Origin: Legionella sp.
GTDB lineage: Bacteria > Pseudomonadota > Gammaproteobacteria > Legionellales > Legionellaceae
Assembly: GCA_033791145.1 (NCBI GenBank)
Contig: JASJHH010000176.1
Coordinates: 1 to 52,259 of the forward strand
DNA: 52,259 nucleotides
Reading direction: 5' to 3'
In this document: positions 27,001 to 33,000 of the stretch, piece after piece
Position numbering within the stretch: position 1 is the stretch's first letter
How the letters are laid out: the number at the start of each line of letters is the position of its first letter
Program-made: the position numbers

Positions 27001-30000
27001 TCGAAATTGAACGCGTCAAAAAAACATATAGTTTTATTACTGTTGATGCTTACCATGATGATGCTGAACGAGAACGGATGGAAGCCTGGAACCTAACCGC
27101 TAAAACAGTCATGCATGTGGATGAATGGAAGCAGTTTTTTGATGAGGTGGGTTATACCGGTGATTATCATTGGTTTATTCCATGAGTGTGAATCAAGAAA
27201 CGCAACTTGATTTATATTATCAAATGTTGCGAATCCGGATGGTAGAAGAAGCAATTGCTGCGGCTTACTCAAAGCAAAAAATGCGAACGCCTGTGCATTT
27301 ATCAATTGGTCAGGAGGCGGTGGCCGCAGCAGCAGGGTGTGTATTAAAACCATCGGATTATGCGGTAAGCACACATCGCTCGCATGCGCATTATTTAGCA
27401 AAAGGGGGCTCTTTAAATGCCATGATTGCTGAATTGCATGGCAAAGTAACCGGTTGCTCTCGTGGCCGGGGTGGCTCTATGCATTTGGTTGATCAATCGG
27501 TCGGTTTTATGGGAAGTACTGCTATTGTTGGAAATACCATTCCGATTGGCGTTGGTTTAGGTCTTGCGATTCAATTAGAAAATGACAATCGCATTAGTTG
27601 TGTTTTTATGGGCGATGGCGCAGCTGAAGAAGGCGTTTTTTATGAATCACTGAACTTTGCTGTGGTCCGGAAGCTGCCGGTCTTATTTATTTGTGAGAAT
27701 AATTTATATTCGGTATATACCCCAATTGCTAAACGTCAGCCGAAAACACGTAAATTATATGAGTTAGCACGCGCGATTGGTGCTGAATCAATGCATGCAG
27801 ATGGATATGATGTGATAACGGCGTTTAATGCCCTAAATAGTGCAGCGCAAATTGTTCGTGATGAGGGTAAGCCGTGCTTTATCGAGCTGTCGACGTATCG
27901 ATGGCGTGAACATTGTGGCCCTAATTTTGATAATGATATTGGGTATCGTAGCGTAGAAGAGTATGAAGCTTGGTTTGAAAAAGATTCGATTATAAAGCAC
28001 AAGCAAAGCTTATTAACTCAATTTTCAATTAGTGAGGCTGTATTTCAAGAGATGGAAGATAAAATTTCTGAAGAGATAAATTTTGCTTTTGATGCAGCAG
28101 AAGAAGCAAGCTTTCCATCGCAAACAGAGGCACATCAAGGCGAATATAAATTATCTCAAATTGAGGAGCATGAACTATGCGAAGCCTGACGTTTGCCGAC
28201 GCGATTAATGAGGCCACGCACCAAGCGATGGCACAAGATTCAAAAGTATTATGTTATGGATTAGGTGCTGACGATCCGAAGCGAATTTTTGGAACAACCC
28301 ATCAGCTACAAGAAGCATTTGGAGAACAACGCGTTTTTGATATGCCGACGTCAGAAAATGCGATGACAGGTATTGGGGTTGGGGTCGCAATTGCTGGATT
28401 TCGCCCTGTGATGATGCATCAGCGATTGGATTTCTTTTTATTGGCCATGGATCAATTAGTTAACTCCGCGGCTAAATGGCATTATATGTTTGGTGGGCAG
28501 ATGAATGTGCCCATTGTGATTCGGCTTGTGATGGGCCGCGGATGGGGACAGGGTCCAACACACTCTCAAAATCTACAATCTTGGTTTGCACATATACCGG
28601 GATTAAAAGTTGTGGCACCAGCGACAGCAGCAGACGCAAAAGGGTTATTACTGAGTAGTATTTTTGATGAAAATCCGGTTGTTTTTTTGGAACATCGTTG
28701 GTTACATAATAGTGTGAGTGATGTCCCTGAGCTTGATTATTGTACGCCGCTCGGTACTGCAAAAATAGTTCGACCTGGGCGAGATGTGACTTTAGTGGGT
28801 ATGTCATATATGACAGTTGAAGCCCTTCGAGCTGCAAAAAAATTAGAAGCATTAGGTATTTCGTGTGAGGTAATTGATCTCCGAACAATAAGGCCGATTG
28901 ATTGGGATACAATCTTAACTTCGGTTAAAAAAACAGGCAAATTAATCGCACTGGATTGCAGTATGCCAACGTGTTCTGTTGCCAGTGAAATTATTGCAAC
29001 AGTCAGTATGGCGGCGTTTAAAGATTTAACACACGCGCCTATTCGGATTGCTAATCCAGATAATCCAGAGCCAACCAGTTTTGGCTTGACCAAAGATTAT
29101 CATCCTGATGCAAATCGAATTATTCAATCTGTTTCAGAGATGCTCGGTGTTGCTTTGGAGGATTCAATGCTTTTTTCGAATCAACAAAATCATATGCATG
29201 ATGTACCAGGTGATTGGTTTAAGGGGCCTTTTTAGATGAAATTAAAAGAAACGTTTAGCGCTGCAGTCTTAATGAAAACCAGTGAGCCTTTGCAAATCAT
29301 CAATAATATTTGTATGCCAACGCCTAAAAAAGGCCAAGTACTGGTTAAAATTCGTTATGCCGGTTTATGTCATAGCCAGCTTATGGAAATCAAAGGCGCT
29401 CGGGGTGAAGACAAATATTTACCGCATATGCTAGGTCATGAAGGTGTCGGTCAGGTTGTGGCTATTGGAGAAGGTGTTTCTAAAGTTAATCTAGAGGACA
29501 CGGTGGTTTTGAGCTGGATCAAAGGCGAAGGAATCGATGCAGGTGGCGCCCAATACCAAACCACCGATGGGTTAATCATTAATTCGGGTGCGATAACAGC
29601 TTTTAGTGAATATGCATTGGTCTCTGAGAATCGATTGCTATTAAAACCTGCTGGAACGCCTGATAAATTATCGGTTTTATACGGATGTGCCCTACCAACA
29701 GGGTTTGGTATGGTTGTTAATAATTTGCCAGAACAAGCGACAGGGCATATTGGATTTTTAGGCCTAGGTGGCATTGGCATCAGTGCACTGCTTGCAGCAA
29801 AATTATATGATTTTAGCCAAGTGATTGTGATAGATGTGAACCCAGATAAATTAGCCCTTGCGAAAACGCTGGGTGCAACTCATGCGATTAATGCGCGTGA
29901 TCCTGATTTTATAGAGCAAATTTATCAATTAACAGATGGCGTTGGTCTGGATTATTGTTTTGAATCAGCAGGTAAAGCTGAGACCATTGAAAAAGCGTAT

Positions 30001-33000
30001 GCATTAACACGCAGGCAAGGGGGCTTGTGTATTTTTGCATCTCACCCGCCTCATGGGGATAAAATTCAGCTTGACCCGTTTGATTTGATTTGTGGTAAAA
30101 ATATTAGGGGGACGTGGGGCGGAGAGACTCAGCCAGAACGAGATATTAAACAATTTTCAGGATTATATGATAAAGGTCAGTTACCGCTGGATGCTTTAAT
30201 TAGTCAATCATATCGGCTTGATGAAATTAATGAAGCAGTTAATGATTTAACACAACAAAATATTGTTCGGGCTTTAATTGATTGTCATCCTGAAGAGGCT
30301 GTGTGTTGAACGATACAACTCAACAAGTGGTTCTTATTACGGGTGCAACACAAGGGCTCGGGTTGGCACTCGCTTCTATTTTTGATAGAAAAAAAATGCA
30401 AGTGTTATTAACTGGGCGTTCTCGAGAAAAACTTAACCGATGTCAGCAAAGTTTTTTGCATCCGGATTATCATCGGTATTTTGAAGGTGATTTAACGGAT
30501 GATTTTTTTCTGAATGAGTTATTACAATCATTAGATAACAAAAAGATTGTACCCAATATTATTTTGCATAATTTAGGTGGCAAAGTATCGGGTGATAAAC
30601 AGCCTGTGTCGCAAGATGTGTTAATGGCGTCTATACAACTTAATTTAGGGGTTGCCGCTCAAATTAATACGCATTTCCTGCCTAAAATGGAACAGCGAGC
30701 ATCGGGTCGGATTATTCATATGAGTTCTGATGCAAGCTTAACCGGCCAATCAGCCCCTGCCTATGCAGCAGCAAAGGCAGCATTAAATGGCTATGTTAAA
30801 AGCACGGCTCGGTATTATGTGAAACATCAGATTATGATGTGTGCTGTTTTGCCTGGTATTTTTGAGCATGATGATAGTGCTTGGGCTAAAAAAAGAGTAA
30901 CGGACCCAGAACATTATCATCAGGCACTTAAAAGCAGGCCATTTGGCAGATTTAATACTTCAGATGAAATAGCAGATGCAGTAGTAGAGATAGCGTGCAA
31001 TACAACCATGGTACATGCAGGGAGTTTGATTCAATTAACGTCGGGTTTTTGAGTGATTTTTAAGTGTTTTTTAAAGGAATGATCATGACAGATATGGATT
31101 TAGCGATTGAACAAAAAGCGCAGCATAGCAATATTTTTACTTCGTTTGATGCTCTCAATCAAGTTTTGGATAAGTATCGAGACAATACAAAAATAGTCCA
31201 TTGTCATGGTGTGTTTGATTTGTTGCATATTGGGCATATTAGGCATTTTAAAGCGGCGCGCGAATTTGGTGATATTCTGGTGGTGAGTTTAACGCCAGAT
31301 ATTTATGTCAACAAAGGCTCAGGCCGGCCCGCTTTTACCGAACAATTACGTGCAGAAGCCATTGCATCGTTAGATTGCGTTGATTATGTTGTGATTAATA
31401 CGTCTCCAATCGCGGTTGAAGCAATTCAGCAAATTCGCCCTGATTTTTATATCAAAGGTGATGAATATGCAGATCAAAAAAATGACATCACCGGAAAGAT
31501 TAATGTAGAACGAGAAGCAATAGAATCTGTAGGTGGGGTTTTAGCATTTACATCGGATCTTACGTTTAGTTCATCCAATTTAATTAACCGTTTTTTTTCA
31601 CCTTACTCAGAAGAGATGCAACATTTTTTAAATGAATTTAAAAAGCAATATACAGCTGATGCTATATTTGATTATCTAGAGCAAGCAAAAGATTTAAAAG
31701 TCTTGGTGGTCGGTGAGGTGATTATTGATGCGTATCATTTTACCGATGTGATTGGAAAGGCTGGTAAAGAACCGACGTTAGTTGCAAAAAAACTCGATAC
31801 AGAAAATTATCTTGGAGGGAGTTTAGCGCTTGCGAATCATTTAAGTGATTTTTGCCAAAAAGTGACGTGTTTGACTTATTTAGGTGAGAAAAATGAGCAT
31901 GACACGCTGATTAAAAAAGGTTTAAAACATAATATAGATGTTGTTCCTATTTATAAAACAGATTCTCCGACGATAGTTAAGCATCGTTATTTAGATAAAT
32001 ATCTCAAACAAAAGTTATTTGAAGTGTATGAAATCAACGATGATTTTTTAGAACCTGAGCAAGAGCAAGCATTTCAGGCGCATATTAATCGTTTGACGGA
32101 TGAGCATGATTTAGTGATTTGTATTGATTATGGACACGGATTATTAACAGATGAGTCAATTCAATTACTAACAGATAAAGCTAAATTTCTTGCAATTAAT
32201 GCACAATCTAATGCAGGAAACATGGGTTTTAATTGCATTTCCAAATATCCTTCGGCTGATTTTGTATCGATTGCGAATCGCGAACTTCAATTAAATTATC
32301 GTCAAAAGCATTTGAGCAGTACGGAACAAATGTCTCGTCTTATGGAAGAGCATGATTATCAGAAAGTGATGGTCACGTGTGGTAAATACGGTGCTTATGC
32401 TTGCCAGCAAGGTGAAGCGCAAACGCATGTGCCTGCATTTACGAATCAAGTTGTTGATAGAGTGGGGGCAGGGGACGCGGTACTCGCGATATCGAGTTTA
32501 TTTGCCTATCTTGATGCGCCGTCGCTATTAATTGCATTTATTGGAAATGTAGTGGGTTCTGAAGCAGTAGGTATGATGGGTAATAAATCTTCAATTGAAA
32601 AAGTGCCTTTAATGAAGCACCTTTCTCATTTATTGAAGTGAGGTTATTCTGCGCGCGCCTTGTTTTTTGGATATCTTCGTTACATTCCGAATGAGGGAAC
32701 AAAATAAATGAAAAGTAGTGAGTTGGGCCAATCCAAGCTAAACGTTATTTCCACATTTGTTAGTAAACCTACACGAGTGAAAGCGGGATATAGGCAAGAT
32801 ATTGATGGCTTACGTGCCATCGCTGTCTTATTGGTCCTTTTTTATCATATTTTTGGTCAAGGCGGATTTTTTTCCAATGGCTTTATCGGCGTCGATGTTT
32901 TTTTTGTAATTTCCGGATATTTAATTACTTGCCATATTGTTTCAGAGCTTGAGTCTGGCTCATTTTCGTTGAAAAAATTCTACATGCGACGAATGCGGCG

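Follow-up and report, generated by a model that had tools for sequence, protein, structure and literature searches.

A candidate sugar-branching E1 alpha/beta pair in a surface-glycan operon of Legionella and its recurrent cross-phylum gene cassette

Enzymes of the alpha-KADH2 type, which are built from E1 alpha and E1 beta subunits and use thiamine diphosphate (ThDP), attach a pyruvate-derived two-carbon (C2) unit to deoxysugars at a C3 or C4 ketone in the aldgamycin, kosinostatin, avilamycin, paulomycin, trioxacarcin, and kibdelomycin pathways (PMC12247030). KbDH-alpha/beta accepts pyruvate as the sole donor and ketones as acceptors in vitro, and the acetyl branch formed in such pathways is subsequently reduced, methylated, oxidised, or transaminated (PMC12247030). 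The route to paulomycose consists of a 4,6-dehydratase, a 3-O-methyltransferase, an E1 pair, and a ketoreductase; the pair, Pau11/12 (= Plm8/9), places the pyruvate-derived C2 unit on C4 of a 3-O-methylated 4-keto-6-deoxysugar (PMC4753412, PMC4802897). A 2025 review places the E1-type sugar-branching enzymes in antibiotic pathways only and ascribes the branched sugars of lipopolysaccharide (LPS) to YerE-type enzymes (PMC12247030). Here I analysed an E1 alpha/beta pair encoded in the middle of a glycan operon of Legionella sp., on a stretch of 52,259 nucleotides (GenBank assembly GCA_033791145.1, contig JASJHH010000176.1, positions 1 to 52,259), hereafter called the window. On balance, the pair is probably a carboligase of the alpha-KADH2 type that works without E2 (the lipoyl acyltransferase) and adds a pyruvate-derived acetyl group to a nucleoside diphosphate (NDP)-4-ketosugar, the branch then being reduced or transaminated. 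C2 branching would be the best explanation of the locus because the alpha-KADH2 precedents match its gene logic of 4,6-dehydratase, methyltransferase, E1 alpha, E1 beta, and often a Zn-dependent alcohol dehydrogenase (Zn-ADH). The pair and the distinctive end of its second subunit are as follows.

27182-28189, plus strand: E1 alpha, 335 amino acids (aa), predicted ThDP-binding alpha-KADH2-like carboligase subunit (PF00676, 218 bits)
28177-29235, plus strand: E1 beta, 352 aa, no lipoyl domain (PF02779 and PF02780)
29137-29232, plus strand: clade-specific C-terminal extension of E1 beta, residues 321-352, ending HDVPGDWFKGPF

The alpha subunit keeps the ThDP motif GDGAAEEG...ENN that had been reported in an initial annotation of this DNA, and the motif was located at residues 144-174. 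The catalytic His244 of E1 alpha is invariant (77 of 77 relatives), as are Glu60 and His129 of E1 beta among the relatives. Judging from these invariant catalytic residues, the E1 pairs of the whole clade are predicted to be active ThDP enzymes. The separate alpha (E1_dh) and beta (Transket_pyr and Transketolase_C) subunits with an intact ThDP site have the architecture of alpha-KADH2 enzymes. The YerE-type architecture, with TPP_enzyme_N/M/C in one chain, was found in no open reading frame (ORF) of the window; E1 alpha gave a weak partial match to TPP_enzyme_C. It was also confirmed that the window encodes neither E2 nor E3, since none of its 46 ORFs of at least 150 aa has a 2-oxoacid_dh, lipoyl, E3-binding, or E3 domain.

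I performed a scan for related loci, taking one genome per species, and obtained 80 loci (denoted by L numbers) whose E1 alpha is 39-59% identical to that of the window. The window proteins were compared with the loci by tblastn, and all ORFs of the loci were clustered. E1 beta is adjacent to E1 alpha in 76 of the 80 loci. The gene right after E1 beta, which was callable in 67 loci, encodes a DegT-family aminotransferase in 19, an NDP-sugar dehydratase/epimerase in nine, a Zn-ADH in four, and a family 2 glycosyltransferase (GT2) in four. It encodes E2 in a single locus, L076, which is also the most distant one: its concatenated subunits are about 39% identical to those of the window and at most 42% identical to those of any other locus. 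A recurrent cassette was recognised, consisting of genes for a GmhA-like SIS protein, a reversed HldE, an extended short-chain dehydrogenase/reductase (SDR), an RmlB-like 4,6-dehydratase (40-53% identical to that of the window), a methyltransferase, E1 alpha, E1 beta, and often a Zn-ADH. Its carriers include Desulfobacula, Nitrospirae, Colwellia, Alteromonas, Rhodopseudomonas, Caulobacteraceae, Methylophilaceae, Chlamydiia, Pelagibacteraceae (SAR11), Elusimicrobia, Parcubacteria, and an archaeal metagenome-assembled genome (MAG) of Woesearchaeota. The module is a widespread cross-phylum cassette and is not a rarity. In a neighbour-joining tree rooted on L076, the window nests inside the clade with the 4,6-dehydratase-methyltransferase-E1 alpha-E1 beta cassette. 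A second, more basal type of cassette, in which E1 alpha and E1 beta are followed by DegT, a reductase, in some cases an epimerase, and a nucleoside triphosphate (NTP) transferase, was found in Azospirillum, Planctomycetes, Myxococcales, and Acidobacteria.

The tail of the window E1 beta is about 30 residues long and ends in FKGPF. Solved E1 beta chains, which have 324-341 residues with one chain of 369, align only to residues 2-323 of the window E1 beta. Thus, the window protein extends beyond the canonical end of a complex E1 beta at about 324-341 aa. An FxGP[F/Y] end is present in 71 of 78 related E1 beta proteins. It is absent from the E2-coupled L076 and six other relatives, as well as from the solved chains; five of those six are basal in the neighbour-joining tree, and the sixth (L042) nests within the cassette clade. 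The strictness with which the very last residues are kept suggests that they contribute to the active site or to the quaternary structure. As a speculation, the tail might block the E2-binding site or help to bind the nucleotide-sugar.

Is the pair an ordinary pyruvate dehydrogenase (PDH) or acetoin dehydrogenase E1 that lies in a glycan locus by chance and has its E2 and E3 elsewhere in the genome? The closest solved relatives are indeed PDH E1 subunits, relatives are annotated at source as pyruvate or acetoin dehydrogenase, and the genome is seen here through the window only. However, both subunits fall below all the PDH equivalog cut-offs. E1 alpha scored 298 bits against TIGR03182 (cut-off 394), and TIGR03181 gave 186 bits (cut-off 411; both NCBIfam); E1 beta scored 309 bits against NF006667 (cut-off 321) and 308 bits against NF008854 (cut-off 454), the latter match being confined to the part of the profile after the lipoyl domain. 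Even the closest solved structure to E1 alpha, human PDH E1 alpha, gave 151 bits only. Furthermore, the pair is translationally coupled in an operon with methyltransferase and ADH genes, its conserved tail is missing from complex E1 beta proteins, 66 of the 67 relatives lie in sugar clusters with no E2 right after E1 beta, and the sole E2-linked relative is the one with about 39% identity. Thus, to the question of whether the two subunits are a metabolic PDH or acetoin E1, the evidence at the level of sequence says no; a chance location has hardly any probability for the window, and for the clade the metabolic reading is essentially excluded. The idea that this is an 'orphan' E1, independent of E2 and E3 and dedicated to glycan biosynthesis, which had been put forward from the window alone, is supported by the profile scores, by the relatives, and by the tight linkage to enzymes predicted to form 4-ketosugars.

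Other ThDP enzymes also occur in the related loci. YerE-like enzymes accompany the E1 pair in nine of them, among them L009, L014, L031, L036, and L038; therefore, the two types are not simply interchangeable. Split transketolases were found in seven loci (L016, L020, L023, L034, L039, L041, and L042). Many loci also encode radical-SAM and B12-radical-SAM enzymes, FkbM methyltransferases, and GHMP kinases, so these clusters make heavily tailored sugars. The presence of the E1 pair, one of the other two classes of ThDP enzymes known to branch sugars, and radical-SAM/B12 methyltransferases in one locus suggests multiply branched or chain-extended sugars. The split transketolases, together with the fact that the nearest named metabolic relatives (by their source names) cleave acetoin, also bring to mind the reverse reaction, in which the pair would remove a C2 unit from a ketose or a branched intermediate in the manner of acetoin dehydrogenase or transketolase and so shorten or rearrange the skeleton. 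This is very improbable: it is not obvious what would take up the C2 fragment if neither E2 nor another oxidant is there, sugar-nucleotide pathways offer no precedent, and the characterised E1 pairs of sugar clusters work in the synthetic direction (PMC12247030).

Bradyrhizose was considered as a product, since a heptose, a C2 unit, and a methyl group add up to C10 and Rhodopseudomonas carries the cassette. It was dropped; no Bradyrhizobium protein was found among the best 120 relatives of the R. palustris E1 alpha, and the oxygenation pattern of the sugar does not fit a simple route. The C4-branched O-antigen sugar of R. palustris CGA009 was also set aside, because the literature assigns it to a YerE-type enzyme and an aldolase (PMC9306805, PMC12247030) and the strains with the cassette are different ones (such as HaA2 and XCP).

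In the window, 13 genes on the plus strand form one operon at 19399-34720 with intergenic distances of -13 to +66 nt. Their order and Pfam content agree with the initial annotation, which had placed two DegT aminotransferases and a methyltransferase upstream of the pair and a nucleotidyltransferase-kinase and an O-acyltransferase downstream. E1 alpha and E1 beta stand between the methyltransferase and the Zn-ADH in the following order.

19399-20448, plus strand: CBS-domain NTP transferase, operon gene 1 (PF00571 and PF00483)
20495-22294, plus strand: LIC12162-family transferase, operon gene 2 (TIGR04331, 328.6 bits, above the cut-off of 225)
22328-23275, plus strand: extended SDR resembling the NDP-heptose C4-dehydrogenase Cj1427 (110.9 bits to 6vo6 over the full length)
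23272-24258, plus strand: RmlB-like NDP-sugar 4,6-dehydratase (TIGR01181, 199.5 bits)
24255-25418 and 25415-26521, plus strand: two paralogous DegT-family aminotransferases (PF01041, 369 and 376 bits)
26523-27185, plus strand: class I S-adenosylmethionine (SAM)-dependent methyltransferase, 220 aa (PF08241), ATGA-coupled to E1 alpha
29236-30309, plus strand: Zn-dependent alcohol dehydrogenase family oxidoreductase, 357 aa, proposed ketoreductase or oxidase (PF08240 and PF00107)
30303-31052, plus strand: classical SDR, 249 aa, second oxidoreductase (PF00106)
31064-32641, plus strand: reversed-order HldE-like protein, a cytidylyltransferase-PfkB fusion (PF01467 at residues 48-154, then PF00294 PfkB at residues 212-506)
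32708-34720, plus strand: AT3-SGNH O-acyltransferase, last operon gene (PF01757 and PF19040)

The translational coupling claimed for the four genes from E1 alpha to the SDR proved exact at every junction. The stop codon of the methyltransferase gene and the start codon of E1 alpha overlap as ATGA (27182-27185), E1 alpha and E1 beta overlap by 13 nt (28177-28189), the ADH start (29236) directly abuts the E1 beta stop (29235), and the ADH and SDR genes overlap by 7 nt (30303-30309). An alternative E1 alpha start, an upstream TTG at 27170, is given in the ORF listing, but the ATG at 27182 is favoured by the 335-aa homologues in L081-L083. In these three independent contigs, the E1 alpha-E1 beta-ADH-SDR-reversed HldE block is kept with protein identities of 68-84%; therefore, the four-gene block is real and under selection, and a chance arrangement is unlikely. 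The window is not C. burnetii DNA, and its closest relatives are uncultured Gammaproteobacteria. A promoter and terminator scan of 17.5-36.5 kb gave counts at chance level and was uninformative.

The conserved partners of the pair bear on the nature of the acceptor. A homologue of the 4,6-dehydratase, whose closest solved relative is the dTDP-glucose 4,6-dehydratase 6bi4 (162 bits), is present in 34 of the 80 loci, usually just upstream of the methyltransferase and E1 alpha genes. Homologues of the extended SDR with 40-65% identity lie within cassette loci; its match 6vo6 is, I take it, the structure of Cj1427. Cj1427 functions as a GDP-heptose C4-dehydrogenase (PMC10680097). The HldE-like protein has a reversed domain order and scores below the cut-offs, and the closest solved relative of its kinase domain is the heptose 7-phosphate kinase 4e84. 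Its homologues, found in 26 of the 80 loci, usually adjoin a GmhA-like gene and in several cases then a separate NTP transferase gene. The window also has such an isomerase outside the operon.

14553-15176, minus strand: divergent GmhA-like SIS isomerase (TIGR00441, 98.9 bits, below the cut-off of 209)

This protein clusters with SIS genes inside 23 cassette loci and is likely to be a supply step for the activated sugar. The solved relatives of the extended SDR, the dehydratase, and the kinase point to a heptose-type NDP-sugar and to the formation of a C4 ketone, and the conserved partners tentatively favour an NDP-sugar of that type over a nonulosonate as the substrate. The same kinase-cytidylyltransferase, directly downstream with the ADH and SDR in the operon, might be read differently: the pair could make a small pyruvate-derived block (of the acetoin or butanediol type, an acyl or hydroxyalkyl group, or a keto-acid derivative serving as the donor for another enzyme), which would be reduced by the ADH and SDR, activated by the kinase-cytidylyltransferase, and attached to the glycan, so that the sugar skeleton gains no carbon. 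The E1 family does include acetoin-cleaving and acetoin-forming enzymes (PMC12247030), and butanediol dehydrogenases are among the many families to which the SDR bears a weak resemblance. Against this, the reversed HldE typically adjoins a GmhA-like isomerase and its kinase domain resembles heptose 7-phosphate kinase, which speaks for sugar activation; the second type of cassette has no kinase; and it is the methyltransferase and the 4,6-dehydratase, rather than the kinase, to which the E1 pair is most tightly linked. I regard a small building block as quite improbable.

The methyltransferase is the best-conserved partner, with 57-68% identity across phyla. In most cassette loci its gene is directly upstream of E1 alpha, including loci without an aminotransferase; therefore, at least there, it is probably an O- or C- rather than an N-methyltransferase. 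Its matches to PDB sequences are generic, and the regiochemistry is not assignable from them. Both DegT proteins keep the lysine for pyridoxal phosphate (SFHPLK and SLHPLK). A tandem DegT pair accompanies E1 alpha/beta also in Coxiella burnetii (L084) and in L019, L028, L032, L037, and L039. L028, a Chlamydiae MAG, has two separate E1 alpha/beta pairs (4037-6000 and 11306-13350) that flank the tandem DegT pair in one glycan locus.

The Zn-ADH keeps the catalytic zinc ligands Cys45, His68, and Cys151 and has no cysteines where the structural-zinc lobe normally sits. Its closest solved relatives are class III ADHs (150 bits), and homologues with 32-55% identity were found in 20 of the 80 related loci. 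The SDR has intact TGxxxGxG and YxxxK motifs. It is conserved at 68-72% identity in L081-L083, and of the 80 wider loci, five have an SDR with 27-30% identity; the window SDR is specific to the close relatives of the window. No match to it was found among PDB sequences at 1e-25. The proposal that the ADH and SDR reduce the branch has to be narrowed, since the SDR is specific in this way and the branch ketone may be a substrate for one of the two DegT enzymes, working in place of the reductases or alongside them.

The conserved ADH also allows another scheme, in which it oxidises the terminal CH2OH of an NDP-heptose or NDP-hexose and the E1 pair adds the C2 unit to the aldehyde by an acyloin condensation like that of DXS; the resulting higher-carbon omega-deoxy-keto sugar would be aminated or reduced by DegT and SDR. 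Aldehydes are the preferred acceptors of ThDP enzymes, the 20 loci mentioned above keep an ADH of the alcohol/aldehyde class, DegT directly follows E1 beta in 19 of 67, and the abundance in the clusters of other enzymes that form C-C bonds suggests higher-carbon sugars. However, minimal cassettes such as those of L001 and L018 lack the ADH and yet have two enzymes that make ring ketones, the 4,6-dehydratase and the Cj1427-like one, and ring C3 or C4 is the branching position of every E1 alpha/beta sugar enzyme characterised so far (PMC12247030). Chain extension is therefore considered unlikely.

E1-like genes in the phase-I LPS region of C. burnetii had also been mentioned in the initial annotation, and a pair of the same clade was indeed found there, beside gmd, fcl, and C-methyltransferase genes. 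A C. burnetii protein with 96% identity was obtained with the E1 alpha of a Coxiella-like endosymbiont (L032) as the query. In the C. burnetii locus (L084), the genes are arranged as DegT-DegT-unknown-GT2-E1 alpha-E1 beta, and the opposite strand beside the pair encodes a TylC3-like C-methyltransferase, a GT2, and two proteins of the GDP-mannose dehydratase family (gmd and fcl-like). Identity between the window and C. burnetii is 48.6% for E1 alpha, 56.3% for E1 beta, and 43-47% for the DegT proteins. CBU0689 is gmd and CBU0688 is fcl-like (PMC3539893); by comparison with these assignments, L084 was taken to be the virenose/phase-I LPS region, and the way its genes follow on from CBU0688/0689 makes CBU0693/0692 the probable tags of the E1 genes. 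The interval cbu0678-cbu0698 is deleted in Nine Mile phase II (PMC5843353). CBU0678, with the same unusual domain order as the HldE-like protein of the window, is a reversed HldE essential for phase I LPS; its truncation abolishes phase I LPS, and full-length LPS is required for the full virulence of C. burnetii (PMC5843353). The Coxiella LPS literature that was searched makes no mention of a role for the E1 genes. A few genes from the E1 pair, L084 also has a 236-aa ORF (18303-19013) with a Transketolase_C domain only, perhaps what is left of a second E1 beta or of a split transketolase.

Further glycan genes lie on both sides of the operon, those upstream of it being as follows.

8270-12017: nonulosonate (sialic/legionaminic-type) cluster of NeuD-like acetyltransferase, NeuB, NeuC, and CMP-sugar synthetase (NeuB TIGR03569, 470 bits; NeuC TIGR03568; both above the cut-off)
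12412-13224: 2-oxoglutarate-Fe(II) oxygenase of the 'sporadic carbohydrate cluster' family (TIGR04324; the window copy is below the cut-off)
17720-18970: TIGR04372-family glycosyltransferase

A second NeuB paralogue is encoded at 41505-42590, 30 kb downstream of the nonulosonate cluster. In L082, a close relative, NeuC and NeuB genes lie in the same operon as the E1 block. The TIGR04324 oxygenase, TIGR04372, and LIC12162 families, whose function is given as unknown in NCBIfam, recur in E1 cassette loci; the oxygenase, the TIGR04372 glycosyltransferase, and the LIC12162 transferase may hydroxylate and transfer the product sugar. Downstream of the operon are Wza-like (Poly_export) and Wzc-like (Wzz/GNVR/AAA_31) export genes (43759-46863) and a weakly matching Wzy_C/O-antigen-ligase-like gene (48989-50221). 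Since export genes are present downstream, the glycan could be a capsule or exopolysaccharide rather than, or besides, an LPS O-antigen.

From the gene identities, the intact catalytic residues, the E2-independence of the clade, and the conserved cassette, I infer the donor, the acceptor, the order of the steps, and the product of C2 branching as follows. Supply of the NDP-sugar, probably of the heptose type, would fall to the GmhA-like isomerase together with the reversed HldE-like kinase/nucleotidyltransferase, and the RmlB-like 4,6-dehydratase and/or the Cj1427-like C4-dehydrogenase encoded just upstream would convert this sugar into a ketosugar. E1 alpha/beta would decarboxylate pyruvate to hydroxyethylidene-ThDP, and this acyl anion would add to the keto group of the nucleotide-activated ketosugar to give a tertiary alcohol bearing a C-acetyl branch. 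The coupled methyltransferase would O- or C-methylate the same intermediate, the Zn-ADH and SDR would reduce branch or ring ketones, and one DegT may transaminate the branch ketone. Finally, transferases of the operon would incorporate the sugar into the surface glycan, and the AT3-SGNH enzyme would O-acylate it. The analogy with AviB1/AviB2 drawn in the initial annotation is apt, as alpha-KADH2 enzymes attach a pyruvate-derived C2 unit to ketosugars and KbDH has been assayed in vitro (PMC12247030, PMC4753412, PMC4802897). By the same token, its description of such modules as essentially uncharacterised biochemically is right for Gram-negative glycans but not for the kind of enzyme. As a whole, its interpretation held for the enzyme kind, and its substrate and product are kept here as proposals.

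Several points weigh against C2 branching. The likeness of the pair to AviB1/B2, Pau11/12, and KbDH was judged from architecture and gene context, and no solved structure of AviB1, Pau11, or KbDH was found among the PDB sequence matches to the E1 subunits. The presence of both a 4,6-dehydratase and a C4-dehydrogenase is not accounted for by a single branching event, and no GmhB-type phosphatase was seen in the window. YerE-like or split-transketolase genes are present in many cassette loci; therefore, the E1 pair need not be the branching enzyme. The sugars described for C. burnetii LPS, virenose and dihydrohydroxystreptose, have C1 branches, not C2, and I know of no glycan structure for the source organism or for any carrier of the cassette. 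Lastly, the NeuB, NeuC, NeuA, and NeuD genes of the window, and their placement in L082, could mean that a nonulosonate is the substrate of the E1 pair; this is not favoured, as most cassette loci lack NeuB.

With regard to the review cited above (PMC12247030), the cross-phylum surface-glycan cassettes of putative heptose type, the FxGP[F/Y] tail, and the presence of the pair in the C. burnetii phase-I LPS region appear to be new. I would tentatively go further and raise the possibility that the FxGPF-tailed pairs constitute a cross-phylum family of E2-independent carboligases building undescribed heptose-derived surface sugars, either C-branched (aminoethyl- or hydroxyethyl-) or chain-extended, including that of the C. 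burnetii phase-I O-antigen, the tail replacing E2 docking with nucleotide-sugar recognition. If this were true, there would be unrecognised sugars in many environmental bacteria and in the C. burnetii phase-I O-antigen. C2 branching itself, if confirmed, would give a testable function to unassigned genes of the C. burnetii phase-I LPS region, predict unknown branched sugars in many organisms, and provide new ketone-accepting carboligases for tertiary alcohol synthesis. The FxGP[F/Y] C-terminus of E1 beta would then be a simple annotation marker that tells glycan from metabolic E1 pairs.

How does the locus compare with known systems? The E1 components of the pyruvate, branched-chain 2-oxoacid, and acetoin dehydrogenases share the fold and catalytic residues of the window pair, which differs from them in having no nearby E2 or E3, equivalog scores below the cut-offs, an extra E1 beta tail, and a glycan context. 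YerE with YerF in yersiniose A formation, and the YerE-like ErwE, MMAR_2332, and MyGE, share the proposed chemistry, in which a ThDP acyl anion is added to an NDP-4-ketosugar and NAD(P)H reduction follows (PMC9306805, PMC12247030). However, YerE consists of a single chain of the acetolactate synthase type (TPP_enzyme_N/M/C), unlike the E1 alpha/beta heterotetramer; the window pair therefore falls outside the YerE family. The Coxiella phase-I LPS region (cbu0676-cbu0700) has in common with the window an E1 alpha/beta pair of the same clade, tandem DegT genes, and a reversed-order HldE; it lacks the adjacent small methyltransferase, ADH, and SDR and has instead the TylC3-like C-methyltransferase, gmd, and the fcl-like gene. 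The closest likeness in organisation is to the alpha-KADH2 pairs (AviB1/B2 for avilamycin eurekanate, Pau11/12, the aldgamycin and kosinostatin enzymes, and KbDH), which are also two-subunit E1s with no E2 or E3 and lie in deoxysugar clusters with 4,6-dehydratase and methyltransferase genes as neighbours; after them come genes for a ketoreductase and/or an aminotransferase, predicted to process the acetyl branch. Unlike these antibiotic enzymes, the window pair belongs to surface-glycan loci of the LPS or capsule type in Gram-negative and other non-actinobacterial lineages, and its partners are predicted heptose-type proteins, namely the GmhA-like, reversed HldE, and Cj1427-like ones. Paulomycose biosynthesis follows the same logic as the conserved 4,6-dehydratase-methyltransferase-E1 alpha-E1 beta core of the window, with or without the ADH.

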